64,000 nt of DNA from a phage: assembly GCA_024614665.1 (NCBI GenBank), contig GCA_024614665.1_4861.1. One strand, written 5' to 3'. Of the stretch, positions 14,603-36,909 are shown piece after piece. Under the pieces are notes generated by a model. The model was given only the letters and a program-made list of their open reading frames with translations, was not told the origin of the DNA and made no database searches. Made by a program: the position numbers and the translations under genes. Position 1 is the stretch's first letter; every line of letters starts with the position of its first letter.

Positions 14603-16117
14603 TTACACCTCTTCTTCTCGCAGTATGCGACGGTTTGCGTAATACGCACACCACAACCCATGATACTCTTTACCGATATAGATTAAGAAGTAACGGATGT
14701 AGTATTTTTCAGGACGACACACCGCGATGTAATAACGGCCTTCCGGTTCTTTAATACGGTTGATTTCCGTACGCGATGGAATATCGATGCCGCGAGTCAA
14801 AATAACCGAGACAGGTCGTTTACCCATCGGAAAGTCAATCTTTAACGTTATTGACTTATCGACGCTACGGTAGTATTCCTTGACAGGTTTACCTTTGTCG
14901 TCGAATAGCAAGTCGGTAATGTCGTTTAAGACATAACCCTTTTCCTGATGCAGAACATCTCGCAACGTTGTAGCGAGTTCGTCACGAATATCCAGCGCAC
15001 GGTACGACAATAAGGGCGGGCGAAGCATTCTGGAGATGGCCAGGTCTTCAAAGAACCAGACATTGGAATCTTCTCCACTGAAATGCATCTTGTCTGCCGG
15101 TAATCCATCACCTGCCACATCAACGAACTTCTTACGTTTAACGAACTCATTGTTAACAACACCGATTGGATCATACTGCCGCATCTTCGGTGTATCTTTC
15201 CATGCCAGGGCGGCGTGGGTGTTTACAATCGTGTAGATGTTATCCCACGGTTGTTTAGTGAACATTACGGAAAAGTGTGCATCAGGAATCATTTTCCCAA
15301 TAAACACCAAGTCGTCCTTGTTCTTTGCATGGTTACCACCAAACATGTAATAGAAAGTTTCATCTTTCACTTTTACAGTAGGATGGTCCTCGTTCACCAA
15401 CGGATAGCAATATTTAACCGTACAAATCGGCGGATATGCCGCAAGGTTCATCCCAGCGGCGATGGGCTCGGGTTCCGCGGATGCAGGCAACTCATCTTTC
15501 GACCAGTACGGCTGATATGGAACGCCGTCGTTGGTCGCAGTGATAGCTGAACCTTTTCTAGCCAATTCGTCCGCCCGGTCGTTACCGTAGTGGCCGGAGT
15601 GTCCTTTGATTTTGATAACCTTAACACCCCGTCCTTCTTTTTTCATCTGCTGTTTGATTTCCCAGATACGAACAATAAGTTCTTTGTTCGCCAGCGGAGT
15701 ACCGTCAGCACGAACCCAACCACGTTTATGCCAGCCGTCTATCCACTCGTTAAAAGTGTTTACAACGTAACTGGCATCCACGTAGATGATATAGTTCTTC
15801 GCGCGGAAGGGTGCGTTCTCAAACAACGTGATGAAGGCGATTAACTCGCCCACATCTGAGTAGAACTCTTTCGGAACGGGAATAACGGCGTCGACAAATT
15901 GAACGGTGTCCGGCAACTCCGGACACTTCACATCCTGCGGCACTTTTTTGTATCCAACAGTGGTAATCCGTTCTGAAACACCCGGATGGCTATAAGCCTG
16001 ACTGTCTTCCAAATCTCCGTTGTTGAATAAATAACCATGAATACCAGCCCCCGAACCTTTCGGGGACTCAGTATGACTACCATCGGTATAAATAACCGCT
16101 ACGTCGACGTCTTTCAT
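14603..16117 (-). CDS. RNase H (type 1) domain protein with about 320-aa C-terminal extension
   Basis: N-terminal VIYTDGS and KIKGHSGHYGNDRADELARKG match RNase HI catalytic motifs; C-terminal two thirds have no recognisable motif. Confidence 0.65.
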   Translation of the reverse strand: MKDVDVAVIYTDGSHTESPKGSGAGIHGYLFNNGDLEDSQAYSHPGVSERITTVGYKKVPQDVKCPELPDTVQFVDAVIPVPKEFYSDVGELIAFITLFENAPFRAKNYIIYVDASYVVNTFNEWIDGWHKRGWVRADGTPLANKELIVRIWEIKQQMKKEGRGVKVIKIKGHSGHYGNDRADELARKGSAITATNDGVPYQPYWSKDELPASAEPEPIAAGMNLAAYPPICTVKYCYPLVNEDHPTVKVKDETFYYMFGGNHAKNKDDLVFIGKMIPDAHFSVMFTKQPWDNIYTIVNTHAALAWKDTPKMRQYDPIGVVNNEFVKRKKFVDVAGDGLPADKMHFSGEDSNVWFFEDLAISRMLRPPLLSYRALDIRDELATTLRDVLHQEKGYVLNDITDLLFDDKGKPVKEYYRSVDKSITLKIDFPMGKRPVSVILTRGIDIPSRTEINRIKEPEGRYYIAVCRPEKYYIRYFLIYIGKEYHGLWCAYYANRRILREEEV

Positions 16118-16836
16118 TATTCTCCTCGCAACTGCGGTGGAATGTATTCACCTGTGCACATTTCGCGGTGGGCTTCTAACATGCGCTCGAAGCCGTACGT
16201 ACGCGCGACCAGGGCCAAATGATAGATGCGTGCCGTAGAATACGCTTCCTTCGCAGCATCAAAGCTAGCGTTATGCTCGTACGCTTCTTTGCCACGGGTC
16301 CAATGGTGCGCTTCTGCGTGCCAGTTAGGTTCCAGGCCAAACGCATATGCAATACGCTCTGCAGTCCGGTCAGAGTCCAATATAGAAAACTTGCGGTACT
16401 TGCCCGGCGGGATATCGCACTGCGCGAACGCGTTCATCAGAATTGGAGCATCGAAATCGGGACCGCGCATGGTGATAACCATTTTCACGTTGCCCAGATC
16501 ATCCAACCATTTTTTGGCCGCCCACAGTGCTTCTGGCAGTGGCGTGGTCCCAGAAAACGCTTCAACACGTGCTTTCTCGCTCGGTGCGTATTCGGGGTCG
16601 CCTTTACCTTCCCAATAGCCGACCGTTTGTGGATCGATGTAGAAGATTTCTTTTGCTTTTGCATCGTTAGGGTCGATTTTGTGGTAACACGAACCGATCA
16701 TTTTCATTGTCGGAACATCGAATGCCACGTTTGCCAACGTTAAGATGTAGGCATCTGGACGTAAAGCCAGGGTCTCTAAGTCTGTACCAACAACCACGGT
16801 TGGTGTTAAAACAGGCAGAATTTTAGGATAGGTCAT
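16117..16836 (-). CDS. DEDDh-type 3'-5' exonuclease (DnaQ-like fold)
   Basis: VVGTDLETLAL (Exo I D-x-E) and HNASFDAAKEAY (H-x4-D Exo III) motifs; 1-nt overlap with RNase H gene. Confidence 0.55.
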   Translation of the reverse strand: MTYPKILPVLTPTVVVGTDLETLALRPDAYILTLANVAFDVPTMKMIGSCYHKIDPNDAKAKEIFYIDPQTVGYWEGKGDPEYAPSEKARVEAFSGTTPLPEALWAAKKWLDDLGNVKMVITMRGPDFDAPILMNAFAQCDIPPGKYRKFSILDSDRTAERIAYAFGLEPNWHAEAHHWTRGKEAYEHNASFDAAKEAYSTARIYHLALVARTYGFERMLEAHREMCTGEYIPPQLRGE

Positions 16837-20018: not shown

Positions 20019-21176
20019 TTATTTACCGACGATGTCGCGGACCATTGCTTTGATTGTGGCAGCAGTACGTTTCTTTTTCGGCAGCTTGCGGATTTCCGCG
20101 TACAGTTTATCCAGGTTCAGAGTTTTCTGTACCTGAGCAACAATCTGCATTTGCTCTTCGTCGATTTTCACTTCGACGGTCTGCTCCTGCATTTTGCCCA
20201 GTTCCTGAATCACACTGGCAACCGACACCGGATAAGCTGTTGATTTTGGACGTTCGATACCGAGGGTAACAAAGATTTCGTCGTCAATAAACACATTTTC
20301 GATATCAGCCAAGTTTTCCAGAATGATTTCATCGTGGTCTTCATCTTCTGACGCATTCGGATATGGACGTTTGTAGGTGTAATCCCACACGTCATAGCCG
20401 AGTTTATCTGCGAGTTGTACGAAACCTTCCCAGGTTACTTCGCCGGGGTTGATAGTCTGACCACGGAAACCAGGGTTGGCCGTAAAGACTTTCACCCAGT
20501 CGATGTTTGCGATGCTGCGACACTCTTCCAGCGGCGCGTAACGATCTCCCACTTCGTCATTGTCAGACTCTTCAACATGCTCTGCTTCACAACGCTCGAA
20601 AGTAACTGAGTGTGGTTTACCGTCACCGAAGATAACGGAGGCAGAACGCCAGTCTTCGATAGTCCACTGGACATGAGTCAAATCAATGTAACAATGCCCA
20701 ACTTTAACACGACCTCGTGGGGCACTTACTGGTTTAATCAGTTCACCTGGTTCGAAGAAGAATTCGTCAGAATGTGCAATGGCATACCAGACACCATCAA
20801 CACCTTCAACGAGAATAGACCAGTTATACGGCGCATGGCAACTTTGGAAAGCTACGCCCAGCATACTTCCCCAACGGTCATCTGGCGAATATTTCAGCGG
20901 CGGTAGGTTATCAAACTGAAGAGTTTGAGAAGAAAGGCACAACTTATTACGCAGGTGCGGCAGCGGCAGATAAGCCTCCACATTGTTATCGAACAGCGCA
21001 TTGTAAAGATCCGGGTTGATAACACCGGTGCCAGTGACGTGTTGTGCAATCAGAGCTTCGGAATATGCACGAAAACCTTCGTAGCTAAGCACATACGCAC
21101 GGTTACGTACTACACGAGCCATATCTTCGATTACGGAAATTGGAAATTGCATGTTAATAGTCCTTATAAAAGTCAA
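20019..21176 (-). CDS. hypothetical protein (385 aa)
   Basis: Long ORF; start may be the internal ATG 24 nt downstream. Confidence 0.5.
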   Translation of the reverse strand: MTFIRTINMQFPISVIEDMARVVRNRAYVLSYEGFRAYSEALIAQHVTGTGVINPDLYNALFDNNVEAYLPLPHLRNKLCLSSQTLQFDNLPPLKYSPDDRWGSMLGVAFQSCHAPYNWSILVEGVDGVWYAIAHSDEFFFEPGELIKPVSAPRGRVKVGHCYIDLTHVQWTIEDWRSASVIFGDGKPHSVTFERCEAEHVEESDNDEVGDRYAPLEECRSIANIDWVKVFTANPGFRGQTINPGEVTWEGFVQLADKLGYDVWDYTYKRPYPNASEDEDHDEIILENLADIENVFIDDEIFVTLGIERPKSTAYPVSVASVIQELGKMQEQTVEVKIDEEQMQIVAQVQKTLNLDKLYAEIRKLPKKKRTAATIKAMVRDIVGK

Positions 21177-21211
21177 TGGTATTTTCAGATGATTAGTTAC
21201 TGCTGTAAAAA

Positions 21212-21478
21212 CTAGTTACGGTCGGAATTAAAGACGTGCCAGGTACTACGCCAGCGAAAGAATCGGGTCATGAAACCACGCACGTGGTAGCCTGAGAACA
21301 ACATCCAGATCGTGAGAAAAAGCTGCGCCCATGGAGTGGTGAGTTCCATCAAATGTGCGACTATCGCACCAACTATCAACATTACCGTGGAGAATAACAA
21401 ACCATACATCATCGGAATGTTGTGGCTATAGTGTTTCTCCATCCAGTAGAGAAAATTTATTAAACGTTTCACGAACAC
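21212..21478 (-). CDS. small membrane protein (88 aa)
   Basis: Two hydrophobic helices (LLFSTVMLIVGAIVAHL, LFLTIWMLFSGY). Confidence 0.4.
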   Translation of the reverse strand: MFVKRLINFLYWMEKHYSHNIPMMYGLLFSTVMLIVGAIVAHLMELTTPWAQLFLTIWMLFSGYHVRGFMTRFFRWRSTWHVFNSDRN

Positions 21479-21490
21479 ACATCCAAGAAT

Positions 21491-21525
21491 TAAATAAAAG
21501 GTGGTCAGACCCGAAGGTCTGACCG
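21491..21525 (-). terminator. intrinsic terminator
   Basis: ggtcagacc-cgaa-ggtctgacc followed on minus strand by T-run. Confidence 0.5.
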
Positions 21526-21529
21526 TTAA

Positions 21530-22123
21530 TTACGCATCGGCCTCAAAGAACGGCTGGTTTGGTACCACTGCGTATTCGAGCACGAACAGATGTTCTGGGG
21601 CATCTTCTGCTCGCCACAGTTTGTGACACGTTGCCAGTTTTTCCAGGATGGTCAGCCAGCTGAGTTGGCAAAACGCACGATCGCCGAAGAACAGTTTCTG
21701 CAGTGCAATTGACACATCCATATACGCCTGTTTGAAGTCGAGCCCTTTATCGTAACCTGCCGACTGTCGCCAGGTCAGCACGAAACCTGCTTCGGTTTCG
21801 TTAATTGCTGGACGTAAACCACAAATCCACATCAGTGCCAGATTAACGTTCCAGTCGAATTCGATACCTTCGTCTTCGTCATCACCAAACGCCGCGTTTA
21901 ACGCGTCGTAGAAACCGTGGTTCTCTGCGAACCATTCGCCGTACTCAACGTAGACCGGTGCTTCGACAGCCTCCCCATCGACTTCACCGATAGGGCGCTC
22001 TACATAGTTCGGGTTGGTTTGAACGTGTTCCGCACCCGCGCGAATCAGTTCGTAGACATCTTTGGCGGTGATTTGTGCGGCTGTTTTAAGACCTGGATAC
22101 CAGGGGCGTGTTACGAGTGTCAA
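21530..22123 (-). CDS. hypothetical protein (197 aa)
   Basis: Intact ORF; terminator hairpin downstream. Confidence 0.45.
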   Translation of the reverse strand: MTLVTRPWYPGLKTAAQITAKDVYELIRAGAEHVQTNPNYVERPIGEVDGEAVEAPVYVEYGEWFAENHGFYDALNAAFGDDEDEGIEFDWNVNLALMWICGLRPAINETEAGFVLTWRQSAGYDKGLDFKQAYMDVSIALQKLFFGDRAFCQLSWLTILEKLATCHKLWRAEDAPEHLFVLEYAVVPNQPFFEADA

Positions 22124-22881
22124 AGCAGTGCTCCTTTCATGATGGTGTTATTTGCCAGTAATGTACCGGCCGCAGGTGATATTTTGGTGTACAGCGTATC
22201 CCAGATTTTCTGAAGTTCAGCGACGCGTTGGTCGTGGTCTTCCTTCGCAAAAGCAAGCTGACGTGTTTCAGCTTTCGGTGGCGTCATTTTCGCACCGTAG
22301 AATGCTGCGTCTTTTCGGTAACTGGCCATCCAGCGTTTCCCGACCGGTGATTTCTTTTTAATCATCGCAACAGCAGCACTCTCACCGAAGCGGTAGCCTA
22401 ATGCGATTTCGGCTGTGCTCGGCTTGCGTTTGAGTTGTTTCGTCAGATGATCCTCGATGTGTTTCATGTAAACAGCAGCAAGCTGTACAGCATATTTCGG
22501 TTTATTAAGGTCTGCGTTCTTTGGGATGTTAAGTTGTTTCCCATACAGACGTATCATGGAGCGTTTAGTGCCTGTCGTCATTTGGACAACACTACTAGCA
22601 CTGCTCGATTTATTCTTACCCACGTTTTTATTAAAACGGGATTCACGGTAAATAGTGGTCGCAAGCATCCCGGCGTGTACACCTTGCTTTTGAGATGCGG
22701 AGACGATGAGAGGTTTAATCTCATTGAACTGGTCCTGGATAAGGACAAATTCTTTTTGATGTTTGTTACTGGTGGACTGGTAAGAAGCGTTGCTGTTGAA
22801 TGTGGTCACTGCTACCAGAAGAAATAAAATGGTGCGAAACATGGATGTTCTCCAAATGGATTTATACTTTTCCGTTCCCAA
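22120..22881 (-). CDS. putative exported lytic transglycosylase-like (SLT-like) protein
   Basis: N-terminal hydrophobic signal (MFRTILFLLVAVTTF from internal ATG); ESRFN...SSVVQMT...GYRFG resembles SLT catalytic Glu-Ser region; start uncertain. Confidence 0.4.
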   Translation of the reverse strand: MGTEKYKSIWRTSMFRTILFLLVAVTTFNSNASYQSTSNKHQKEFVLIQDQFNEIKPLIVSASQKQGVHAGMLATTIYRESRFNKNVGKNKSSSASSVVQMTTGTKRSMIRLYGKQLNIPKNADLNKPKYAVQLAAVYMKHIEDHLTKQLKRKPSTAEIALGYRFGESAAVAMIKKKSPVGKRWMASYRKDAAFYGAKMTPPKAETRQLAFAKEDHDQRVAELQKIWDTLYTKISPAAGTLLANNTIMKGALL

Positions 22882-22929
22882 TCCGGGAAGACGGCGCGGA
22901 CGGCATTGTGCTCCTTTGTAATGTGCCCT

Positions 22930-22944
22930 GATAATAATATCTAT
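22930..22944 (-). promoter_or_regulatory. AGATATTATTATC motif upstream of gene 22120..22881
   Basis: Related motif about 50 nt upstream of start. Confidence 0.25.
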
Positions 22945-23441
22945 TTGAAACTTTTTGGGATGATTTTCTCTGCTTCCCTCAGCAGGGTGTCTGGTAAATA
23001 GAATCGATAAGTCTGCTCCGTGTGCTGTAGTCGTTTCTGTAAGTGTATAAAGATTTCCAATCGCTCATGGTAACGTAACCAACCGTTAGCCATCCCTAGG
23101 GGCGGTATCGCAATCCCTCCTTCTAAGTCTTCCCCTAGTCGCGCCAGCGCATCAATGCCGGACGTGACATAGTAAATCTGCGATTTATAGCGAAAATGGG
23201 TTTTAGTAGGAAGGAGTATTACCCCTTCCTCAGGATAACAATAGACCTCACCGATAACGATTTGCTCTTTACGACATTTCTGGCGATAGTCGTTATAAAG
23301 CGATGGGAAGCGTTCTCGGCACGCCAAGGCAATGCCCCTTCCCATCGCACCAACACAGTTAACTGTAACGACCTTGAAGCGCTCAGGCGCGTTAAACAGG
23401 TCGTGGGAGATAATAGCCTCGTCGATCAGTTCGAGTGACAT
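22941..23441 (-). CDS. macrodomain protein, TARG1/DarG-like (166 aa)
   Basis: KVVTVNCVGAMGRGIALACRERFP and IAIPPLGMANGWL match the NCxGxMGxGIA / GxxNG pattern I recall for TARG1/DarG-type macrodomains. Confidence 0.5.
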   Translation of the reverse strand: MSLELIDEAIISHDLFNAPERFKVVTVNCVGAMGRGIALACRERFPSLYNDYRQKCRKEQIVIGEVYCYPEEGVILLPTKTHFRYKSQIYYVTSGIDALARLGEDLEGGIAIPPLGMANGWLRYHERLEIFIHLQKRLQHTEQTYRFYLPDTLLREAEKIIPKSFK

Positions 23442-23640
23442 CTATTGCCATACCCCATTGTGAAATAACCGGAGACTGAAGCAGCGATTCCAGCTCAGTA
23501 AGAACTCTGGCTTTTGCTTCTTCGCGCAACTTACGGACTTCCGGATCAGGTTTGCCTGCGCCCAAATATTGGGGTTCTGTCTGCGGGGTAGGGAAACCAC
23601 AGAAAGAACTAACCATTATTCCGATGATTGTTTTTTGCAT
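23392..23640 (-). CDS. hypothetical small protein with hydrophobic N-terminus (82 aa)
   Basis: ORF overlapping the macrodomain gene start by 50 nt; N-terminus MQKTIIGIMVSSFCGF. Confidence 0.3.
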   Translation of the reverse strand: MQKTIIGIMVSSFCGFPTPQTEPQYLGAGKPDPEVRKLREEAKARVLTELESLLQSPVISQWGMAIDVTRTDRRGYYLPRPV

Positions 23641-24063
23641 TTAGCTATTCCTTTTCGCCCAGGCATGTACCGCTGACTCGAAACCTTCGTGTTCGATACC
23701 GAGCCGTTTCATTGCCAACATAGTGTTGAGGCTATTCGTAATTTCTTCACGGTAGCGATGGTCATCCATCTTACGCCAACACTTCTCCGGGTCAACGCCT
23801 AAACGCTGGAGTAGATACGCCTCACGCACCATACCAGGCCGCCAGAATTTAGGGCGGGTAATCGCGATTTCAATCATGGGCGTCATGTCCAACGTGTGGG
23901 CGAGAATACTAACCGGCGTTTCCCCAACTTTATCACGTAGCGCTAAACGTAACCACCACTGAACATTTGCTTTGGTTTCAGGTAACAGGTCGTAGAATAA
24001 GGCTGTTTCTTCTTCTGATAAATGATCGTATAGTGATTTTGTTTCGCGAATAGCGGTAACCAT
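23641..24063 (-). CDS. hypothetical protein (140 aa)
   Basis: Intact ORF. Confidence 0.4.
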   Translation of the reverse strand: MVTAIRETKSLYDHLSEEETALFYDLLPETKANVQWWLRLALRDKVGETPVSILAHTLDMTPMIEIAITRPKFWRPGMVREAYLLQRLGVDPEKCWRKMDDHRYREEITNSLNTMLAMKRLGIEHEGFESAVHAWAKRNS

Positions 24064-24074
24064 TTTAATGCTCC

Positions 24075-24338
24075 TTAGGGTAAAGTTGCCTCCCAGTCGT
24101 AACGGTGAGGCTCAGGCAGCGTACCAAGCGCTGCTTTAATACACGTACTCAGCGGAGTATCATCGAACGCAACACGCCCGATAGTACCCACGTTGATGTG
24201 TTTTGGATTTACGGGTAAGAACTCCTTCACCCGCTCGTACTCAGCCCAACAGATATCGGTGTTTAAAGCTGAAAACCCAGGACGGTGAAACATAAATAGC
24301 ACTCCTCGCGTAAAAATACCCCACTCATAGTGAGGCAT
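24075..24338 (-). CDS. hypothetical protein (87 aa)
   Basis: Intact ORF. Confidence 0.35.
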   Translation of the reverse strand: MPHYEWGIFTRGVLFMFHRPGFSALNTDICWAEYERVKEFLPVNPKHINVGTIGRVAFDDTPLSTCIKAALGTLPEPHRYDWEATLP

Positions 24339-24363
24339 AATCGTAAGGAGTGCTAAAACAGGA

Positions 24364-24852
24364 CTATGCTACCGCAGTCCTTAAAGGTTCATCTGCTTCC
24401 GCAGGAACCTGCTTCGTAAATTCAAGCCATTGTCCGTCTGTAGAGACGGTCTTGCCAAAGCCGCGAGCGGTAAAGAACGCAATACCAGCTTCCTGGCAAG
24501 CGTATATTCCCCCATGCGCACTGGTGAACCGTTCATTCACATCAAGCGCATCAAAAATCTGCGTCATCGTTTTGCGACGGCGTGCCATTTCGGACACGAA
24601 CATCGTACGAATCTTCAGAACCCCGGCGATTACGCGATAGAGACAGTAACCAATAGGGGTGCCCCCTTCCAGAGCAACGCAAGCACGGTTCCCCGCCAAC
24701 AGTTTCTCCAGAGTGAGGTTCGGAATCTCACCTTTTTCGATATGGAGTATGGTACGTTGGTGGTTCAGAAATTTATAATGCAGCCCCAACAGCTGTTTAT
24801 TTTGTGCTTCCGTTAAATCTGAGGATGAGGTAAGAATGACAATTTCGGCCAT
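24364..24852 (-). CDS. hypothetical protein (about 162 aa)
   Basis: Start set at internal ATG (MAEIVILT) preceded by AGGAA; the longer track ORF begins at a TTG. Confidence 0.4.
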   Translation of the reverse strand: MAEIVILTSSSDLTEAQNKQLLGLHYKFLNHQRTILHIEKGEIPNLTLEKLLAGNRACVALEGGTPIGYCLYRVIAGVLKIRTMFVSEMARRRKTMTQIFDALDVNERFTSAHGGIYACQEAGIAFFTARGFGKTVSTDGQWLEFTKQVPAEADEPLRTAVA

Positions 24853-25013
24853 GAGCTGAATTCCTAAGTGAGCTTTCACCTGCAATGAAAGCGTGTGACG
24901 AAGAATTGCGTTTGTGTTTTCTTAAGTTTACCGGTAAAGCTTAGCGGTGTATACCGCCACAGATGAAGACCAGTTCTCTATCGGAACTATGTCTTTAATC
25001 AGCAACGACGTTT

Positions 25014-25277
25014 TCAACGTCGTGATGCTGAGGTAACCTTCCGTCGCCACATTCGCTCATGGCGCTTCTGATTACCACGCCAGTCTTCCCCGACTGTACG
25101 TGAAACTGCAAAATCATCCGGCCCGCAGACTTCCGCGATGTCTGCTAAAAGGTTCTTTGAAGACCCTATAGCCATCCCCACGCTAGAAAGAACGATACGC
25201 CGGGTTGGCTCGGCCGCCCCTAAACCCACGACCACGGGATCAGAGACTGTTTCACTGCTACATGTTGTTTCTCCCAC
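25014..25277 (-). CDS. hypothetical protein (87 aa)
   Basis: Intact ORF. Confidence 0.3.
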   Translation of the reverse strand: MGETTCSSETVSDPVVVGLGAAEPTRRIVLSSVGMAIGSSKNLLADIAEVCGPDDFAVSRTVGEDWRGNQKRHERMWRRKVTSASRR

Positions 25278-25390
25278 TTCGTAATTACCCTCCTGTTAAA
25301 ACCAACCTTGCGTCAATGCAAGGATTGCGCCTAGGGCGTATGCGCCTGCTCCTAGTATCAGGCTACAGACGATACACCCAATCCATTTCA

Positions 25391-25522
25391 CTAAAATAGC
25401 CACGTTACTACAAACGCTCCGATTGCGCAAACGATAAACGTGATACCAACATCTGTCCAGGTGGCACCGTCATACGCACCCGTTGCAATCATCGCCGCGT
25501 TGACACTATTCACGACTGTCAT
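25391..25522 (-). CDS. small hydrophobic peptide (43 aa)
   Basis: Not in the ORF track (below its length cut-off); ATG...TAG; translation MTVVNSVNAAMIATGAYDGATWTDVGITFIVCAIGAFVVTWLF. Confidence 0.25.
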   Translation of the reverse strand: MTVVNSVNAAMIATGAYDGATWTDVGITFIVCAIGAFVVTWLF

Positions 25523-25709
25523 AAGCCGGGTCCCTTAAACGTGGGGGCTTGCTCCACAGATTACCGAAGTAAACCCCTTCTAAGAACACCAAAACAACTA
25601 ATCCCCAAAAGGCAGGCGTGGCACGAGACAAGAAAATACCCAGCAGCACCGCAGTGTGCATTACCACAACTGCCCAAAACTTTAAACGTCGCGGTTTACG
25701 TGTTGCCAT
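25506..25709 (-). CDS. small membrane protein (about 67 aa)
   Basis: Start at internal ATG (MATRKPRRLKFWAVVVMHTAVLLGIF) with AAAGGA upstream; one TM helix. Confidence 0.35.
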   Translation of the reverse strand: MATRKPRRLKFWAVVVMHTAVLLGIFLSRATPAFWGLVVLVFLEGVYFGNLWSKPPRLRDPAYDSRE

Positions 25710-25796
25710 GGAATGCCCATCCTTTCGTGCGGATAATCCAATCCCAGGCACCACGAATTAACCACAGCGCAATACCGGTTAGTACAATACCTTCGA

Positions 25797-25988
25797 TCAT
25801 GACCGTTCCCCTACATCTCGCCACTCACAACGTGTGTCGAACAGACGTTCTTTAAGAGCAGCAGCTAAATAAACAACCGCAGCGATAACCACTACGGTTG
25901 CACAAAAGGAGAGGTACAGTACCATCACAACAAACTGAAGGAACTGAAAACCCCACCAAGCCCATAAGCGCCAACCTTTATGATGCAT
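25797..25988 (-). CDS. small membrane protein (63 aa)
   Basis: Trp-rich hydrophobic N-terminus and second helix VVVIAAVVYLAAAL. Confidence 0.35.
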   Translation of the reverse strand: MHHKGWRLWAWWGFQFLQFVVMVLYLSFCATVVVIAAVVYLAAALKERLFDTRCEWRDVGERS

Positions 25989-28488
25989 ATTTGATTATTA
26001 CCCCTTCGTTATAAACCGGTGGAAGCGTTACACCTTCTGGCTCGACGACACAGTAGGTGGCTTCGTTAAGTTTAGAATGAACTTCCGCTTCATGCGAAAC
26101 GACCAGTAATTGAGAAAACTCTCCCGACAACGCCAACGATTTAATGAAGTTAACTAATCGGTTTTTGTGTTCTTCATCCATGCCTTCAGATGGTTCATCC
26201 AATAACAAAGGATAGTTTTGTAAACCAAGCGCTTTATACGCCGTTAAACGAAACATCATGTTAAAGATAATACGCTGTGCTTTTGAACCTTTCTTCACAT
26301 CCGGTACCAGTTCTACATGGTCTTTTAATCGCACAGGGAACGTGTAGTCCAGATCCCCGTCGGTTAGATCGCACGGAATAACCTGCATCGGATATGCCCA
26401 CACCATTTCGATATACCGATTCATTAAATCCATGATGCGGGTAATCGCAGCGTAGAAGTAACGTCTCAGTAAACCTTTTTCAGGAGAAACCGCATTAATA
26501 ATCAGTCTGGCATGGTGGTGTTCTTTGAGCAACTCAGCTTGCTCTTTTTCCAGTTCCGCTAAACGTGCAATAGCCCCTTCCATTTGACGAAACCGTTCAC
26601 GAGCTGAAGTATACGCATCGAGCTTCGCTTCGCGGCGGTTTAACAACTCACGAACTACGACGTTGTTAACGGAGATGTTCATTTCCGATACCAGATGTTC
26701 GTAGCCCTTTTGGAAACGTTCGATTGCTTCTTTGGTTTGTTGCAGTTGGGTGGTTTCGCGTTCCAGCTCATTGGCTTGTCTGCGGTATTCTATCAGTCGA
26801 CGGTTAGCCCCGTCTAGTTGTGAACGGATATGTTCAATTTTCTGGCTCAGAGCACCATCAACATTACCTACTGCGGCAACAGCCTCTTGCCATTCCCGTT
26901 CCGCTGTTGCAAGCTTCGCTGATTGACGCAGATACATCATGGCCGAATCTAACTCTTCGGTAAAGGCACGTGCAATGGCACCATATCGATCCCGCGCCGT
27001 GGTGAAGATATCCAGCTCCTGTAGTTTACGGAAAAACAAACCGACAACGGGATGATTGGAATACGACATGACAATTTCGCGAATCGTACGTAGGCTACGG
27101 ACGTCCTCTTCAATCTCTTTGCGGTCACGCAAAAGACTATCCATTTCGTCTTTCAGCTGTTTTTTCCAACCTTCATTATCGTTGATGGCCTTTTCAATTT
27201 CAGGTAACGACTTACGAATCCCAGGACGGAAACGGTGGTTACACTGTGGACAATCAACTTCTGCAGTTTCTAAGAAGTGTTGACGGTCGTGGTATAAACC
27301 GTGTAGCACATTCTCACAACGTTGCAACTTTTCAGATAGACCCGCAGAGGTTAAATCCATACCCTGTAAACGCTTCTCTAACGCTCCTAGGCGCTCTGTT
27401 GTCTTTAACTGGTCCAGATGCATGGACAACGGTAAATTCCAGTTACAGGCGTCGTTTAACGCGTTCTGAATGCTATCCACGTCGATGCGGGTACCTTCAA
27501 ACAGAGCCGGGAACATCCAGTTCTGTTGGAACGTTGCCAGTTCCTGTTTTAAGCTGTCGATTGTTTGTTTTAGACCGGTATGGTTACGCATCAGATACGC
27601 TTGACGCGACTCCTCATCCAGTAGCTGTGACAACTCTTTATTGTACATGTTGCATTCAGTTTCAGCGGAGGCAGCTTGCTCACGCCAGGCAACCACACGA
27701 CTTTGAAACTCGTTAATCAGTTCGTCAGAAGGCAGAACGCCATAACGTTCCATAATGAGTTTTACAGCCGGTTGCAACGAAGCAATGCGTTTCCGGATAC
27801 TGTCAACCGAAACAGCGTTATCTAAACCGGGCCTTGCTTCAATTGTGCGGTTTAATTCTTGAAGCTCAGCATCGAGTTCTTTCAAACGAACTTCTAAACG
27901 TGCACGATCTTCTTCATCGTCAACGACGCGCATTTTTGCTTCGCCGATTTTTCGTCCGGTGTGTTCGATGGCCCCGCTTAAACTGGAAGCGAGTTTACGC
28001 AAACGTCGATAGCAGCCAACAACGTACGTCAGATCAGATTCTGACATTAACGTAAACCATTTACGACGAACTTCGGTAGTGGCGTCAGTTAATAAGGTCT
28101 CACCATTAATTAACTCTTTGATTTCTTTGGTGATTCCGGTTAATTGCTCCACCATGGAGTTGTAAACTTTGGCGTTTACCGAGTCCACAATGGGGACGCC
28201 TTTGGTGATATTGAAAATACTACAAGACAAAGAAGACCCACGTCGCAGGACTTCAAACTTAAGACGGTCGTCCCCGACTAACGCGTAGTTAGTGTAAGAA
28301 CCACCTTCACGGAATTCAGATTTTGCTGGAGCTAAGGGGAGAAAAACAGATAGGAGGCTTGTTTTACCGCAACCATTCCCACCAAGGATAATGGTAACGG
28401 TTGATTTAAGGGTGAAATCAAACGTTTCGATTTCATGTAACCCCATGCCGGTAAATCCTTTCAAAATGATACGTTCGACCTTGAGCAT
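25978..28488 (-). CDS. SbcC/Rad50-like recombination ATPase (836 aa)
   Basis: N-terminal Walker A GGNGCGKTS; long central coiled coil with CPQC hook-like motif; C-terminal LLLDEPSEGMD Walker B and VVSHE. Confidence 0.7.
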   Translation of the reverse strand: MLKVERIILKGFTGMGLHEIETFDFTLKSTVTIILGGNGCGKTSLLSVFLPLAPAKSEFREGGSYTNYALVGDDRLKFEVLRRGSSLSCSIFNITKGVPIVDSVNAKVYNSMVEQLTGITKEIKELINGETLLTDATTEVRRKWFTLMSESDLTYVVGCYRRLRKLASSLSGAIEHTGRKIGEAKMRVVDDEEDRARLEVRLKELDAELQELNRTIEARPGLDNAVSVDSIRKRIASLQPAVKLIMERYGVLPSDELINEFQSRVVAWREQAASAETECNMYNKELSQLLDEESRQAYLMRNHTGLKQTIDSLKQELATFQQNWMFPALFEGTRIDVDSIQNALNDACNWNLPLSMHLDQLKTTERLGALEKRLQGMDLTSAGLSEKLQRCENVLHGLYHDRQHFLETAEVDCPQCNHRFRPGIRKSLPEIEKAINDNEGWKKQLKDEMDSLLRDRKEIEEDVRSLRTIREIVMSYSNHPVVGLFFRKLQELDIFTTARDRYGAIARAFTEELDSAMMYLRQSAKLATAEREWQEAVAAVGNVDGALSQKIEHIRSQLDGANRRLIEYRRQANELERETTQLQQTKEAIERFQKGYEHLVSEMNISVNNVVVRELLNRREAKLDAYTSARERFRQMEGAIARLAELEKEQAELLKEHHHARLIINAVSPEKGLLRRYFYAAITRIMDLMNRYIEMVWAYPMQVIPCDLTDGDLDYTFPVRLKDHVELVPDVKKGSKAQRIIFNMMFRLTAYKALGLQNYPLLLDEPSEGMDEEHKNRLVNFIKSLALSGEFSQLLVVSHEAEVHSKLNEATYCVVEPEGVTLPPVYNEGVIIKYAS

Positions 28489-28541
28489 GTTTGCCTTCTA
28501 ATGAGAAAGTATTAGTCGTTCATATCCAAAAGGTCATGCGT

Positions 28542-28573
28542 AAAAAAGAAGAAATGGAACCCCGAAGGGTTCC
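28542..28573 (-). terminator. intrinsic terminator
   Basis: ggaaccc-cgaa-gggttcc followed on minus strand by T-run. Confidence 0.5.
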
Positions 28574-28584
28574 AGAGAGGAGAG

Positions 28585-29211
28585 TTATTGCGGAATAAAC
28601 TTACGGTGTCCGAGTGATTCCCAAAAACTATCGGTGCGCTCTTTGGTTAATTCATACCACGCACGCCCGGCATCAGAATCGACAACCTTTAACGTTTCAG
28701 TAAGCAGGAATTTGAACAGTTCAGCGCTACGACCGGGTGCTACACCGTCGAGATATATCGGAATTAAATAACCGGTTTTGATTTCTTCGTACGGTTGCGA
28801 TTGGTGCTGACCAACAACCCAGGCGTCAGCCGCGCTACCGACCAAAGTGGTGTTTACAGTTAACTCATCAGAAATCCAGTTAACGGTATCAGCCATTATT
28901 GAATCGCCATTGACGTAGAAGAAAACTAAACGTTTAGGTTGCTCCACCGAACCGGCCAAATCTAATGCAGTAGTTCCGGTGAAGATCGTATTATTGGGAT
29001 TACGTTCTGCAATAGGTAGAGCAAACCACGCTTCGAGCTGTTCCCAGCTACGCGGCAGTGCTTCTTTAAACCACTTCACCAATCGCGGGTATTCCAGAAA
29101 CCCTTCTACCTCTTCTTCCATCAGATTGATACGCAGTTTGGTATCCTGACGATTCGCTTTCTGACATGTCACCATGTCATCGATGAAACGAATCAGGGTA
29201 ATTTCGTTCAT
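28585..29211 (-). CDS. hypothetical protein (208 aa)
   Basis: Intact ORF followed by terminator hairpin; no phosphoesterase motifs. Confidence 0.45.
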   Translation of the reverse strand: MNEITLIRFIDDMVTCQKANRQDTKLRINLMEEEVEGFLEYPRLVKWFKEALPRSWEQLEAWFALPIAERNPNNTIFTGTTALDLAGSVEQPKRLVFFYVNGDSIMADTVNWISDELTVNTTLVGSAADAWVVGQHQSQPYEEIKTGYLIPIYLDGVAPGRSAELFKFLLTETLKVVDSDAGRAWYELTKERTDSFWESLGHRKFIPQ

Positions 29212-29228
29212 GTTTAATCCTTCTTCAA

Positions 29229-29256
29229 CAAAAAAAGAAGGTAGCCCGTAGGCTAC
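29229..29256 (-). terminator. intrinsic terminator
   Basis: ggtagcc-cgta-ggctacc followed on minus strand by T-run. Confidence 0.5.
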
Positions 29257-29265
29257 CTCTCGTAT

Positions 29266-29766
29266 TTACAGCCCCATATGCATAAGGGAAATGATAGGGA
29301 CTTTTCGGCCACGTATCATTGCATACGGTTCGTACATTTGTGCGTTAGTTTCGAATAACTCACAGGCCGGAATACGATCGCCGGTAGAGAGTTGTAAGAC
29401 TTCGATTTGGTCGCCCCAGAAGTTATTCACTAATACGTGGTCGACAGTGTTGTCTTCACGACCTTCAGGGGTTTTGCAATAAGTGGCGGCATCGTACCAA
29501 CCTTTGCGGTATACTTCATAACCCGCGTGAAGCATCCGGTAGTACGGACGCAGTTGTGGGGCATTCAACGCAGCATCTAGCCACTCGCTGTGAATGCTGT
29601 TAATCAACACGGTCGCTTCTTCTGGCCACTCGCTGCGGTTTAGGGTTAACTCGCCTAACAGCTTTAACTTCCAGCCAGTGGAAAGAATAGCGCGGGTACG
29701 TTCTGGATTGACGTTCATCTGAGTAAAGAAAGTAGAACGAGTATCGTCAAGAATGTTCATGTTCAT
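29266..29766 (-). CDS. hypothetical protein (about 166 aa)
   Basis: Start at ATG (MNMNILDD) with AAGGA RBS, preceded by AATCGACTAT motif and hairpin. Confidence 0.45.
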   Translation of the reverse strand: MNMNILDDTRSTFFTQMNVNPERTRAILSTGWKLKLLGELTLNRSEWPEEATVLINSIHSEWLDAALNAPQLRPYYRMLHAGYEVYRKGWYDAATYCKTPEGREDNTVDHVLVNNFWGDQIEVLQLSTGDRIPACELFETNAQMYEPYAMIRGRKVPIISLMHMGL

Positions 29767-29785
29767 TTGCTTAGTCCTTACGAGT

Positions 29786-29796
29786 AATAGTCGATT
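29786..29796 (-). promoter_or_regulatory. conserved upstream motif AATCGACTAT (candidate promoter element)
   Basis: TTAATCGACTATTACTCGTAAGG upstream of ATG at 29766, nearly identical to the 11131 copy. Confidence 0.3.
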
Positions 29797-29895
29797 AAAA
29801 AGGACCCTGCGGCTATGTGTTGGGGATATCACCGCAGGGCCAAAGTGAGATGGGTCGTCATCTCACGTTATAACATCTGTCTGAAAACTTTTCGG

Positions 29896-30279
29896 TTACT
29901 GGTCGAGCGCTACTGAACCACGCACCACTCCTTGCTGTTCAATAACCAGGAGGCGTTGTTTGGTTTTCGTATTGTAAGCGAGCGACGCGCGAAGCGTCGG
30001 GTCGCACGTTATTGTCTCTACTGGCACAATCTCTTGTGCCTTTGAGTTCAACAAAAAGTAGTAACCTGCCGGACAAGTTTCCTCGCCCTTTGCGTGGACC
30101 AGGATGTACTCGTCGTGCCGGCTGACTTCTTCACATCTACCATCATCCCCAGTACAGACTTCGAACGAAGGCGGGTTGTACTGATACGGTGTGCCTGGTA
30201 GTAAATCTTCTACGCTAGTTGTAGCTGAAGCAGAAGCGGTAAAGAACACCGCCACGATAATACCCATAAATCCACGCAT
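29896..30279 (-). CDS. secreted small protein with conserved Cys (127 aa)
   Basis: Signal peptide MRGFMGIIVAVFFTASASA; 4 Cys in mature part. Confidence 0.45.
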   Translation of the reverse strand: MRGFMGIIVAVFFTASASATTSVEDLLPGTPYQYNPPSFEVCTGDDGRCEEVSRHDEYILVHAKGEETCPAGYYFLLNSKAQEIVPVETITCDPTLRASLAYNTKTKQRLLVIEQQGVVRGSVALDQ

Positions 30280-30292
30280 GTTGTTTCCTTAC

Positions 30293-30703
30293 TTAAAAGT
30301 CGAGTTTATTGATGCCTACGTTTTTCTTAATCGTAGGGTCATACATGATAACCGTCAGGGCATTATCACCTGGGTCGCGAGTAAACTCAGCAACGGCTTC
30401 ACCACTGCAGGCCTGGTTATCATTATAGTTCATGGTTTCGGCTTGCCCGGTTGCCATGTTAATAACCCCGTATTCCGGGTCGCCACATGCGACGCCGCCC
30501 ATCGTTTTCACTAACAGGTAACGGTTGTTATCGGACATCGCAACGATCTGGCAGCTACCGCCTTGTACGTCAGAGTTCTGGCACCAGAACTGGCCGCCGT
30601 ATTCGTGATCGTTAACAACTTTTGGTAACTCGATACTTCCAGCACGAGCGAAGAAGCTAATGGCCAGAGTAGCAAGTAAAACTGGTAATAAAAAATGTTT
30701 CAT
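30293..30703 (-). CDS. secreted small protein with conserved Cys (136 aa)
   Basis: Signal peptide MKHFLLPVLLATLAISFFARA; about 5 Cys in mature part. Confidence 0.45.
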   Translation of the reverse strand: MKHFLLPVLLATLAISFFARAGSIELPKVVNDHEYGGQFWCQNSDVQGGSCQIVAMSDNNRYLLVKTMGGVACGDPEYGVINMATGQAETMNYNDNQACSGEAVAEFTRDPGDNALTVIMYDPTIKKNVGINKLDF

Positions 30704-30725
30704 AATAGCACCTCAATTTTTTGAG

Positions 30726-31217
30726 TTATTCTGAATAGTCGATTGTTTTGATAGTTTCCATACCGTAGTACATAGCGATGGAGGCCAGAGTTTTGGTATC
30801 CGGTCGCTGTACAAAACCGGCCCTGAAATCTTTGCTGCAAATTTTCTCCACTGATAGTTCATCACGATTAGGGATAAGCCATAACGCGTCACCGTTGTGA
30901 CGGTCGACTGCACCCCACCAACCACCTGGGCAATCTTTATCGCCCGGACGGTGTACGATAGCGACACGTCCGTTGAAGGATATGTCAACTACACGACACT
31001 GTTTCTTAAGCAGCTTACGCGCATTGCACCAGAACGGCTTATCATTAAGATTGATGGTGCGGGTATATGCTGGAATGCTGCCGTTAATACTGCCCTGGAA
31101 CCCGCTGAATTCGTCAGCGCGTGCCTTAGAAATCCGTAGCCCAACAACAAGTGCCATCAACAGCACAGTAAAAAGCACCACTTTGGCCAAGTGGCGATTA
31201 ACGTTATTGCATTTCAT
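30726..31217 (-). CDS. secreted or membrane-anchored small protein (about 163 aa)
   Basis: Start at ATG with GGAG RBS; hydrophobic N-terminus HLAKVVLFTVLLMALVVGL; 4 Cys. Confidence 0.4.
   Translation of the reverse strand: MKCNNVNRHLAKVVLFTVLLMALVVGLRISKARADEFSGFQGSINGSIPAYTRTINLNDKPFWCNARKLLKKQCRVVDISFNGRVAIVHRPGDKDCPGGWWGAVDRHNGDALWLIPNRDELSVEKICSKDFRAGFVQRPDTKTLASIAMYYGMETIKTIDYSE
30734..30744 (-). promoter_or_regulatory. conserved upstream motif AATCGACTAT (candidate promoter element)
   Basis: CAATCGACTATTCAG about 30 nt upstream of ATG at 30703, inside 3' end of upstream gene. Confidence 0.25.
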
Positions 31218-31605
31218 TTTTAATATCTCCACGATTAAGGGTGATGCGACCGACGAGCACATCGTTGTGATAAAAACTCACAGCAACCAGATCTGGCAAT
31301 TCCAACGGCGATACACTGACCGAGGTGACTTTTGGTTGATTGCACGATATGTCGATTAATCGCTGATACATTTTCAATTTCTTATCAGCGATAACCAGCC
31401 CTGTGCAGTTCTTACCGTCCGTCAGTCTGTAGATTTGTAACTGTTCGACCTCACGCATCAGTTCCGGTTTTTCATTCGGTGCAATGGCATAATCCGAATC
31501 AGCTGATGTGTATTCAGTCACGTCTGGCTTATCGAAAGCATAAGTTGCTGCAATACCACATGCGGCCAGAACTACTACTGCTTGTAAGAACTTCTTGATA
31601 GTCAT
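31204..31605 (-). CDS. putative lipoprotein (133 aa)
   Basis: MTIKKFLQAVVVLAACG = signal peptide + lipobox LAAC; AATCGACTAT motif 12 nt upstream. Confidence 0.45.
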   Translation of the reverse strand: MTIKKFLQAVVVLAACGIAATYAFDKPDVTEYTSADSDYAIAPNEKPELMREVEQLQIYRLTDGKNCTGLVIADKKLKMYQRLIDISCNQPKVTSVSVSPLELPDLVAVSFYHNDVLVGRITLNRGDIKNEMQ

Positions 31606-35976: not shown

Positions 35977-36909
35977 ATGAACAAATCTAAGTCAGGGTTG
36001 CACATCTTCTCGATAGGTATCGTCGCGGAAGATAAACCTCGTGGTGCCACTCGAGTTAAAGTCATCCCTATCGAAGTTAACTTTATTAATCCAACAGCTG
36101 TCGATGCAACAGAGACGCCTGTAGAGAAGCAACACAACAGTTTAAGTGGTACTGACAACCTTACTGTAAAGCAAGGTAATGCCATCACTGCAAAATGGAT
36201 GAAGTCCAATAGCAACCGGGTTAACCCTCCGGATGTGAAAAAAGAAGACTATGTAAGAATCTGGCGTATCGGTGAAACCGATATGTACTTCTGGGAAGAT
36301 TTAAACAACAGTAACGTTAAGCGACTGGAAGATGGGGTATATGCCTGGTCTGCTGACCCAGTAAACCAGATGGCCGATGACCTCTCTAACGCCTACGTAC
36401 TGAATATCTCCCCGATGGATGGTCACATTACCTTACGTACCAGTATGACCAACGGTGAGAAAAATGCGTATTTGCTCCAGCTGAATACCCGTGACGGACT
36501 TTGCCAGTTAGTGGATGACGAAGGGCGTAAGTTCTACCTCAATTCTCCGGAGGATGACTTAGGGTTTGAAAACGCCTGCCGGTCGAAGATTAATATCAAT
36601 AAAGAGGACGCTTTCATTTATGCTAAACGTTCTATTAATCTCGAGACAAAGACGATTAACGAGAAGTGCGAAACTCGCAACTCTACAGCGTCGAAAAACA
36701 TGGCATGGACGACTGAAGACTGGAAGACCACATGCCCAACGAATCTATTTACCGGTAACCTGGAAGTAGGTAAGGATTTCCTCTATAACGGCAAGGGTGA
36801 GGGTAAGGGCACATTCACAGTTACCGAATCGGTTATCGGCGGCATCACCTTTACTCTTCACGTACATACTGGCCATGGTCCGGGCAACGACACCAGTACA
36901 CCTCACTAA
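35977..36909 (+). CDS. hypothetical protein, possibly virion-associated (310 aa)
   Basis: GAGGAGGG RBS; first gene of plus-strand module; function unknown. Confidence 0.5.
   Translation: MNKSKSGLHIFSIGIVAEDKPRGATRVKVIPIEVNFINPTAVDATETPVEKQHNSLSGTDNLTVKQGNAITAKWMKSNSNRVNPPDVKKEDYVRIWRIGETDMYFWEDLNNSNVKRLEDGVYAWSADPVNQMADDLSNAYVLNISPMDGHITLRTSMTNGEKNAYLLQLNTRDGLCQLVDDEGRKFYLNSPEDDLGFENACRSKININKEDAFIYAKRSINLETKTINEKCETRNSTASKNMAWTTEDWKTTCPTNLFTGNLEVGKDFLYNGKGEGKGTFTVTESVIGGITFTLHVHTGHGPGNDTSTPH

Follow-up and report, generated by a model that had tools for sequence, protein, structure and literature searches.

An SbcC/Rad50-family ATPase gene in an SPN3US-like jumbo phage and its probable, distantly encoded SbcD/Mre11 partner

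Phage-encoded relatives of the SbcCD nuclease complex have been described in several systems, which differ considerably in the arrangement of the two genes. In the giant Salmonella phage SPN3US, gp186 was identified as an essential SbcC subunit by means of an amber mutant, featuring split ABC domains and a middle region of more than 600 residues, and gp27 was named SbcD, its gene being "drastically separated" from the SbcC gene in SPN3US, phiKZ and their relatives (Thomas et al., 2016, J Virol, PMC5105663). Phage T4 likewise encodes an essential Rad50-like ATPase (gp46) together with an Mre11-like nuclease (gp47). Here, genes 46 and 47 are clustered with two small ORFs between them, gp46 is smaller (63.6 kDa), and the T4 proteins share no BLASTP-detectable similarity with those of SPN3US (PMC5105663). 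In E. coli, sbcD and sbcC even form one operon (PMC5105663), whereas the phage genes described below lie about 90 kb apart. Among jumbo phages, SbcC and SbcD are practically universal (Iyer et al., 2021, PMC7824862), and in Pseudomonas phage phiKZ both phiKZ065 ('Nuclease') and phiKZ165 ('SbcC-like nuclease') represent core genes with knock-down phenotypes (PMC12571901). The main text of a further core-genome study makes no mention of SbcC or SbcD (Prichard et al., 2023, PMC10299810).

The window analysed in this study, i.e., one stretch of 64,000 nucleotides (64 kb), derives from an SPN3US-like jumbo phage, with 96-98% nucleotide identity to SPN3US-like phages and phage SaP7 as the nearest record (98.1%). 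Its sbcC-like gene (Table 1) is essentially the same gene as that of SPN3US: the protein shows 99.8% amino acid identity to gp186, has the same length of 836 aa and the published gp186 mass of 95.7 kDa (PMC5105663), and the neighbours are shared. Nothing of substance differs, and the window represents a different isolate. Already in 2016, the SPN3US study had described the gene, shown it to be essential and noted how far it lies from the SbcD gene (PMC5105663). As a discovery, the sbcC finding consequently carries little weight; it is real but ordinary. An earlier note on this DNA, made from the sequence alone, had described the product as an 836-aa SbcC/Rad50-like ATPase with Walker A, a CPQC hook and Walker B/H-loop, and had pointed to the lack of an adjacent Mre11/SbcD-type nuclease. 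All of these motifs were located and found conserved in homologues. The span 25978-29211 which it highlighted covers two genes, sbcC and that of the 208-aa protein.

Table 1. Features of the sbcC locus (positions in the window) and the SbcD-like gene (positions in SPN3US).
Feature	Position	Strand	Basis or remark
SbcD-like CDS, 382 aa, gp27	SPN3US 21020..22168		annotation, then profile and fold
sbcC-like gene, 836 aa, 95.7 kDa	25978..28488	-	ORF; phrog_77; Rad50 profile; orthologue of SPN3US gp186 and phiKZ gp165
Walker A/P-loop GGNGCGKT, aa 36-43	28360..28383	-	regex and homologue alignment
CPQC motif (putative zinc hook), aa 413-416	27241..27252	-	midpoint of the 836-aa chain/coiled coil
Degenerate ABC signature SKAQ, aa 735-738	26275..26286	-	aligned to SGGE of P. 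furiosus Rad50
Walker B LLLDE, aa 761-765, then D-loop D771	26194..26208	-	homologue alignment
H-loop VVSH, aa 796-799	26092..26103	-	regex and homologue alignment
208-aa ORF, phrog_9964	28585..29211	-	upstream neighbour of sbcC
166-aa ORF, phrog_8115	29266..29766	-	188 aa with upstream GTG start; upstream of sbcC
63-aa hydrophobic ORF	25797..25988	-	start overlaps sbcC stop by 11 nt; hypothetical in SPN3US
Terminator-like GC hairpin and T-run	28555..28574	-	between 208-aa ORF and sbcC start; consensus match

Taken as a single sequence, the 836-aa protein remains below the curated cut-offs of Pfam and NCBIfam, scoring far below those of the cellular equivalogs. It matches phrog_77 ('SbcC-like') at E=4.4e-96, and a profile of its family retrieved exclusively Rad50 among the top 11 PDB matches, the best with E=6.5e-13 and covering both ATPase lobes. 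On these matches we assign it to the SbcC/Rad50 family. Conservation of the motifs was judged on an alignment of 11 homologues; a word-indexed search yielded relatives of at least 29% identity only, and phiKZ, Aphrodite1 and Goslar were added from phage records. Down to homologues of 20% identity, the motifs are invariant or nearly so. This applies to G36, N38, G39, G41 and K42 of Walker A, which are invariant as far as phiKZ and Goslar, to L761, D764 and E765 of Walker B followed by D771, and to S798 and H799 of the H-loop. At the apex, C413 and C416 are invariant and F420, P422 and G423 are conserved, so that motif and cysteines together suggest a zinc hook. In the signature, S735 is invariant and Q738 nearly so; the phage sequence reads SKAQ instead of the cellular SGGE/Q, and SGGE is retained in Aphrodite1. 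The Q-loop stretch features no invariant Gln (G129, T134 and R141 are invariant) and is skipped by the PDB alignments. Between approximately aa 150 and 690, the protein appears helical and heptad-rich, according to a crude score (EKRQLA fraction 0.50-0.55, low Pro/Gly). E. coli SbcCD and the archaeal and eukaryotic Mre11-Rad50 complexes share this architecture, and the phage SbcC possesses their CxxC hook, Walker A, Walker B and H-loop. The same motifs and hook also occur in phiKZ gp165, a full-length homologue with 21.5% identity (E=1e-48).

Regarding the nuclease, the window itself contains no SbcD homologue: the best tblastn match (E=0.77) is at the level of chance, and no ORF unites phosphoesterase motif III with motif V. 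As a hidden SbcD, the 385-aa ORF at 20019..21176 was rejected, showing a chance tblastn match (E=3) and no pairing of motifs III and V. Likewise rejected as surrogate partners were a 239-aa ORF (16117..16836), a Rv2179c-like (DEDD-type) 3'-5' exonuclease, and a 504-aa ORF (14603..16117) encoding an RNase H-domain protein, neither of which is Mre11-like. Both the exonuclease ORF and the RNase H-domain ORF have conserved roles of their own.

Beyond the window, where the earlier note had proposed to look for a phosphoesterase, an SbcD candidate is present in all 36 close relatives, with 98-100% nucleotide identity to the SPN3US gene. The 36 records matching the sbcC region are the same 36 that carry SbcD, and in 34 of them the sbcC region shows 95-98% nucleotide identity. 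In the close relatives, the gene lies about 90 kb from sbcC; projected onto SaP7 coordinates, some 66 kb would separate it from the edge of the window. A homologue just outside the window had been named as evidence against an unpartnered ATPase; in substance such a gene is found, but considerably further away. From the absence of SbcD in the visible 64 kb one could assume that this particular isolate has lost its partner, leaving an orphan SbcC. Given the SbcD gene in every one of the 36 relatives with this sbcC region, and the SaP7 and SPN3US maps, which both place it outside the window, such a loss is extremely improbable. That this exact isolate carries SbcD as well is inferred from these relatives. 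The suggestion that the partner is encoded elsewhere thus holds, and the further proposals that it was replaced, or that the ATPase works differently, found no support.

Searches with the single SbcD sequence were weak, yielding Pfam Metallophos at E=0.032 only and no match by phmmer against the PDB, and the annotation was therefore not taken on trust; its identity was resolved by a profile of 33 sequences and a structure model. The candidate matches phrog_100 (E=8.5e-64), and each of the five phosphoesterase motifs is conserved fully or to at least 90% across the 33 sequences (D22/H24; G57-D58; G97-T-P-S-H101-D102; H180; G211-H212-x-H214). Motif III thereby reads GTPSHD, a variant of the GNH[DE] found in Mre11. 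The profile aligns over nearly the full length (positions 10-359) with Thermotoga maritima Mre11 (E=7.8e-11) and also matches P. furiosus Mre11 and E. coli SbcD. Consistently, the AF2 model (pLDDT 91.6) has E. coli SbcD in the SbcCD head complex as best Foldseek match (7yzo_A, E=2.7e-14), and the top 25 matches are all Mre11/SbcD, with LpxH and the small subunits of Pol delta/D appearing only at E>1e-4. At its C-terminus, the model shows two helices (356-363 and 371-381) after a linker of lower confidence (pLDDT 61-75), which would be consistent with a C-terminal helix-loop-helix Rad50-binding domain. Profile and predicted fold hence independently confirm that the gp27 family really is Mre11/SbcD. 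This support for a divergent family that had escaped Pfam and PDB searches with a single sequence is what the present analysis adds. Judged by sequence, SbcC and SbcD are both very divergent from their cellular homologues, and their family-invariant non-canonical motifs (GTPSHD in SbcD, S-x-x-Q in the SbcC signature) could be of interest to enzymologists.

Moreover, the two families occur together. By tblastn over phage records, SbcC was found in 298 and SbcD in 301, with near-identical counts per genus. In 18 genomes checked, a distance of 83-113 kb separates their genes, with 113 kb in phiKZ, where the unlinked genes of gp165 and gp065 both belong to the Chimalliviridae core. The unlinked arrangement is the ancestral state of the phiKZ-related phages (Chimalliviridae) and does not mean that the partner is missing or was replaced. 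In this phage family, a Rad50-like ATPase should consequently not be taken as orphaned or repurposed because a 64-kb window shows no Mre11/SbcD gene beside it.

We therefore consider the gene to encode the SbcC/Rad50 subunit of an SbcCD complex (Mre11-Rad50 type) belonging to the phage itself, with SbcD encoded at a distance, and assign this reading a probability of roughly 0.9. An ABC head would form from the ATPase half-domains located at both ends of the chain, the middle part of roughly 540 residues would fold back as an antiparallel coiled coil, and the CPxC hook at its apex could dimerise via zinc. The separate 382-aa protein of the SbcD/Mre11 family (gp27) would provide the nuclease subunit. 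By analogy to T4 gp46/gp47 and E. coli SbcCD, both could constitute an ATP-driven complex processing DNA ends and hairpins, which might serve recombination-dependent replication and repair of the phage genome. Both family memberships, the conservation of the catalytic motifs, the co-occurrence and the gene separation were observed here; the physical complex of gp186 and gp27 and its biochemical role are what this analogy suggests.

An alternative option would be that the ATPase acts alone or with a non-Mre11 partner, e.g., as SMC-like organiser or as Lamassu/LmuB-like sensor, and that the distant SbcD is independent of it. Such independence could account for genes unlinked over the whole history of the family and for the ASO screen in phiKZ, in which SbcC knock-down was weaker (+/+) than that of the gp065 nuclease (++/++; PMC12571901). 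The protein also matches LmuB in PADLOC (E=2.7e-20) and an 'archaea-specific SMC-related protein' in NCBIfam (E=1.3e-19), but these matches reflect generic similarity of coiled coil and ABC head; the best structural relatives of the profile are Rad50 proteins, and a CPxC hook exactly at the midpoint is a hallmark of Rad50/SbcC. The near-identical distributions over about 300 phages speak against independence as well. A Lamassu-like role, in particular, is at odds with neighbours that lack any PADLOC match, including an LmuA-like effector, and with the status of the gene, which belongs to the essential phage core and not to a defence island (PMC5105663, PMC12571901). Altogether, we regard a solitary or differently partnered ATPase as very unlikely. 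Likewise very unlikely is that the ancient and universal unlinking in nucleus-forming jumbo phages is itself functional, relating to expression timing, to sorting with respect to the phage nucleus or to an SbcD-independent role of SbcC, and that the fast-evolving 208-aa protein of the SPN3US/Erwinia phages could act as a lineage-specific accessory or regulator of SbcC.

This 208-aa protein (or the 166-aa protein next to it) could in principle also replace or supplement SbcD as a nuclease or accessory subunit that has diverged strongly. In every genome carrying it, the gene adjoins sbcC directly upstream, even at 22% identity, and its AF2 model, built from a four-sequence alignment, is of poor quality (pLDDT 57), so that a known fold might go unrecognised; Foldseek with this model gave no fold match in the PDB (best E=0.11, TM<0.2). 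The sequence argues clearly in the other direction. The protein contains two His residues only, and both ORFs lack D-x-H, GNH[DE] and GH-x-H motifs, as the earlier note had stated for the phosphoesterase motifs of the neighbours, which excludes a calcineurin-like phosphoesterase in the case of the 208-aa protein. Neither has a match in Pfam, NCBIfam or PADLOC. By its matches, the 208-aa family is clade-restricted, being found in 57 phage records, all of the SPN3US/Erwinia clade, against 298 for SbcC, and in nine clusters among 1.84e9 representatives by exhaustive HMMER. In phiKZ, Aphrodite1 and Goslar, by contrast, sbcC abuts a divergently oriented baseplate or structural gene (a baseplate gene in phiKZ) with nothing between, the corresponding interval of the SPN3US clade being filled by about 7 kb of small ORFs specific to this clade, the 208-aa gene among them. 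A putative terminator, assigned by consensus match, would furthermore separate the ORF from sbcC, and a bona fide SbcD is encoded elsewhere. A role as substitute or additional subunit is hence highly improbable, and on present evidence the 208-aa protein is neither a nuclease nor a member of the complex.

A scan for sigma-70 promoters, yielding 6 against 6.5 expected in shuffled sequences, is uninformative, as the phage uses its own RNA polymerases. Downstream of sbcC, four small ORFs (25296..25988, the 63-aa ORF being the first) each contain a strongly hydrophobic, TM-like segment, in line with the small membrane peptides noted there before.

Each of the elements that the earlier note had attributed to the 836-aa protein, i.e., Walker A, a CPQC hook, Walker B and an H-loop, was located in the product of sbcC (95.7 kDa, computed), whose middle is of a heptad-rich helical type by a crude score, the region between the ATPase halves showing an E/K/R/Q/L/A fraction of 0.50–0.55 and few Pro or Gly residues. 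As a single sequence, SbcC did not reach the curated thresholds of Pfam and NCBIfam; it matched phrog_77 (SbcC-like) at E=4.4e-96. A profile comprising 11 homologues with 74% down to 20% identity, including those of CR5, phiKZ (gp165), Vibrio phage Aphrodite1 and E. coli phage Goslar, had Rad50 heads in the first eleven places of its PDB matches (top E=6.5e-13), with both lobes covered. In this alignment, the P-loop, both hook cysteines, F420, P422, G423, S735, D764-E765, D771 and S798-H799 are invariant. The signature reads SKAQ, unlike SGGE or LSGGQ, and represents a family-wide S-x-x-Q/E, of which the Ser and the Gln/Glu alone are conserved across the family; Aphrodite1 retains SGGE. A canonical Q-loop Gln was not identifiable in the N-lobe of the 11 homologues, the invariant residues there being G129, T134 and R141 instead.

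Features of the sbcC region and of the sbcC and sbcD genes in related phages (window coordinates unless stated otherwise)
Feature	Position	Strand	Remark
UvsX-like recombinase	7475..8968		
Four short ORFs (63, about 67-82, 43, 44 aa)	25296..25988	-	directly downstream of sbcC
sbcC, 836 codons	25978..28488	-	ORF call
Walker A GGNGCGKT	SbcC residues 36-43		
CPQC hook motif	SbcC residues 413-416		chain midpoint
Signature-like SKAQ	SbcC residues 735-738; 26275..26286	-	
Walker B LLLDE	SbcC residues 761-765		
H-loop VVSH	SbcC residues 796-799		
GC-rich hairpin + T-run	28574..28555	-	between 208-aa ORF and sbcC start; consensus match only
208-codon ORF	28585..29211	-	upstream of sbcC; phrog_9964, function unassigned
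GC-rich hairpin + T-run	29238..29259	-	upstream of 208-aa ORF; consensus match only
166-codon ORF	29266..29766	-	188 codons from upstream GTG start
sbcD	SaP7 142624..143772		
sbcC	SaP7 235581..238088		
"SbcD-like" CDS, 382 aa	SPN3US NC_027402 21020..22168 (locus L002:11021-12169)		outside window; RefSeq annotation

Over bases 25000-30000, the window shares 95–98% identity with 34 SPN3US-like jumbo phages (genus Seoulvirus), with Salmonella phage SaP7 as the closest record (98.1%), and the SPN3US protein encoded at 168900..171410, by gene 186 in the original numbering, shares 99.8% identity with SbcC. The computed mass equals that published for gp186 (PMC5105663). In this earlier work, a gp186 amber mutant was isolated, the gene was found to be essential and its product, featuring a split ABC domain and a middle region of >600 residues, was named the SbcC subunit, with gp27 as SbcD subunit; the wide separation of the two genes in SPN3US and phiKZ was pointed out as well (Thomas et al., 2016, J Virol; PMC5105663). 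Practically all jumbo phages were further described as having an SbcC ABC ATPase together with its calcineurin-like SbcD nuclease (Iyer et al., 2021; PMC7824862), and a 2025 antisense screen reported phiKZ065 ("Nuclease") and phiKZ165 ("SbcC-like nuclease") as Chimalliviridae core genes with knock-down phenotypes (PMC12571901). The puzzle of a Rad50-like ATPase without an adjacent Mre11/SbcD-type nuclease is therefore a described property of this phage family: the feature is real and was rightly read, yet the gene and its arrangement are both already described.

No SbcD copy was found beside sbcC or anywhere else in the window (best tblastn E=0.77; no ORF joining motif III with motif V). The suggestion that the partner lies elsewhere was borne out, as sbcD was matched in all 36 of the 36 records matching the sbcC region, which also contradicts a loss of sbcD from the isolate of the window. 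In SaP7, 91.8 kb separate the gene from sbcC, which places it about 66 kb past the window's left edge (SaP7 coordinates), and the shorter sbcC-sbcD distance amounts to 83–113 kb in the 18 genomes with both coordinates listed. Across the phage collection, tblastn detected SbcC in 298 and SbcD in 301 records, with near-identical SbcC/SbcD counts by genus, such as 81/81 for Pseudomonas, 62/62 for Erwinia, 21/21 for Serratia, 19/19 for Aeromonas, 16/16 for Klebsiella and 13/13 for Ralstonia. Such co-inheritance combined with permanent unlinking is expected for the partners of a single complex where the gene order of a lineage is scrambled, and not for an orphan ATPase.

As a single sequence, the SPN3US SbcD matched Pfam Metallophos at E=0.032 and nothing better, and phmmer against the PDB gave no match; the RefSeq label was therefore put to further profile and structure tests. 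The phiKZ-type SbcD family all but escapes Pfam and PDB searches made with single sequences. The protein matched phrog_100 (E=8.5e-64), and a database search returned 187 homologues, some distant ones with PF00149. In a 33-sequence alignment, the five phosphoesterase motifs (D22/H24, G57-D58, G97-T-P-S-H101-D102, H180 and G211-H212-x-H214) are invariant or at least 90% conserved; motif III, GTPSHD in 33/33 phiKZ-type sequences, replaces the canonical G-N-H-[DE] and aligns with G--NHD of T. maritima Mre11. The SbcD profile matched the latter (3qg5_C) over almost the full length at E=7.8e-11, followed by P. furiosus Mre11 and E. coli SbcD, and every one of its top sixteen matches was Mre11/SbcD. 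A confident AlphaFold2 model (pLDDT 91.6, pTM 0.82) had its top structural match in E. coli SbcD of the SbcCD head complex (7yzo_A; E=2.7e-14, TM 0.60), with 24 more Mre11 structures ranking after it and generic metallophosphatases appearing only above E=1e-4.

SbcC and SbcD are members of their families with intact catalytic motifs, and their genes co-occur while being separated. By analogy to T4 gp46/gp47 and E. coli SbcCD, gp186 would dimerise via the zinc hook and ATP-engaged heads, with a gp27 dimer bound at its coiled-coil base. ATP binding and hydrolysis by gp186 could gate an exo- and endonuclease activity of the Mre11 type that acts on DNA ends and hairpins, and such end processing might feed recombination-dependent replication and repair. 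An SbcD-independent action of SbcC in an SMC- or LmuB-like role, suggested by generic similarity (NCBIfam, PADLOC), is contradicted by the CPxC hook, by Rad50 ranking first among the profile matches and by the distribution that SbcC shares with SbcD.

Another candidate for the nuclease partner was the 208-aa protein encoded upstream of sbcC. Neither this nor the 166-aa protein matched Pfam, NCBIfam or PADLOC, and both lack the D-x-H, GNH[DE] and GH-x-H motifs, in agreement with the earlier note, which saw no phosphoesterase motifs in the neighbouring ORFs; the 208-aa sequence, with two histidines only, excludes a calcineurin-like phosphoesterase. Its gene is confined to 57 phage records, exclusively of the SPN3US/Erwinia sub-clade, where it always lies directly upstream of sbcC, and its product diverges fast (22% identity in phage Parshik vs. 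52% for SbcC). An exhaustive HMMER scan yielded nine clusters among 1.84 billion representatives, and an AlphaFold model from just four sequences was poor (pLDDT 57) and gave no fold match (best E=0.11). A nuclease role is contradicted by the protein's own sequence, its narrow distribution and the true SbcD elsewhere. Similarity to the 208-aa protein is spread over 9–13 separate short stretches in two very long database proteins, P0183 (1340 aa) and P0184 (2998 aa), and in several SPFM phage records matches are likewise split into many pieces, probably reflecting error-rich assemblies and not biology.

Within 24800..30400, 12 terminator-like sites were counted vs. 5.7±2.5 in shuffles, and the hairpins flanking the 208-aa ORF suggest, from consensus matches alone, separate transcription units. 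The immediate neighbour of sbcC in phiKZ, Aphrodite1 and Goslar is a baseplate or structural gene in divergent orientation, whereas the homologous baseplate gene lies at 35977..36909 here; the intervening small ORFs (~7 kb), among them the 208-aa gene, therefore look like an insertion specific to the clade and not like part of a conserved SbcC module. Four tandem small ORFs at 29896..31605 (-; 127, 136, about 163 and 133 aa), each with a hydrophobic signal-like start and several cysteines, may constitute a paralogous secreted or periplasmic set that only the SPN3US clade has inserted between its sbcC and baseplate genes.

Downstream of sbcC, the four short ORFs correspond to the small membrane peptides of the earlier note: all of them carry a strongly hydrophobic stretch of 19 residues and one or two TM-like segments, and an 11-nt overlap of the first ORF with the sbcC stop codon suggests translational coupling. 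The motifs and neighbours thus bear out the earlier note's observation in all its details. A few kb further downstream, a gene cluster at 22120..24885 (-) encodes proteins of 253 aa (putative SLT transglycosylase), 166 aa (Macro domain; phrog "phosphatase") and 173 aa (GNAT acetyltransferase). At 14603..16836 (-), the gene of a 504-aa RNase H-domain protein directly precedes that of a 239-aa Rv2179c-like 3'-5' exonuclease, with overlapping stop and start codons. By its RNase HI domain, the 504-aa protein looks like a candidate counterpart of phiKZ155, which is essential for phage-nucleus formation (2025 ASO study).
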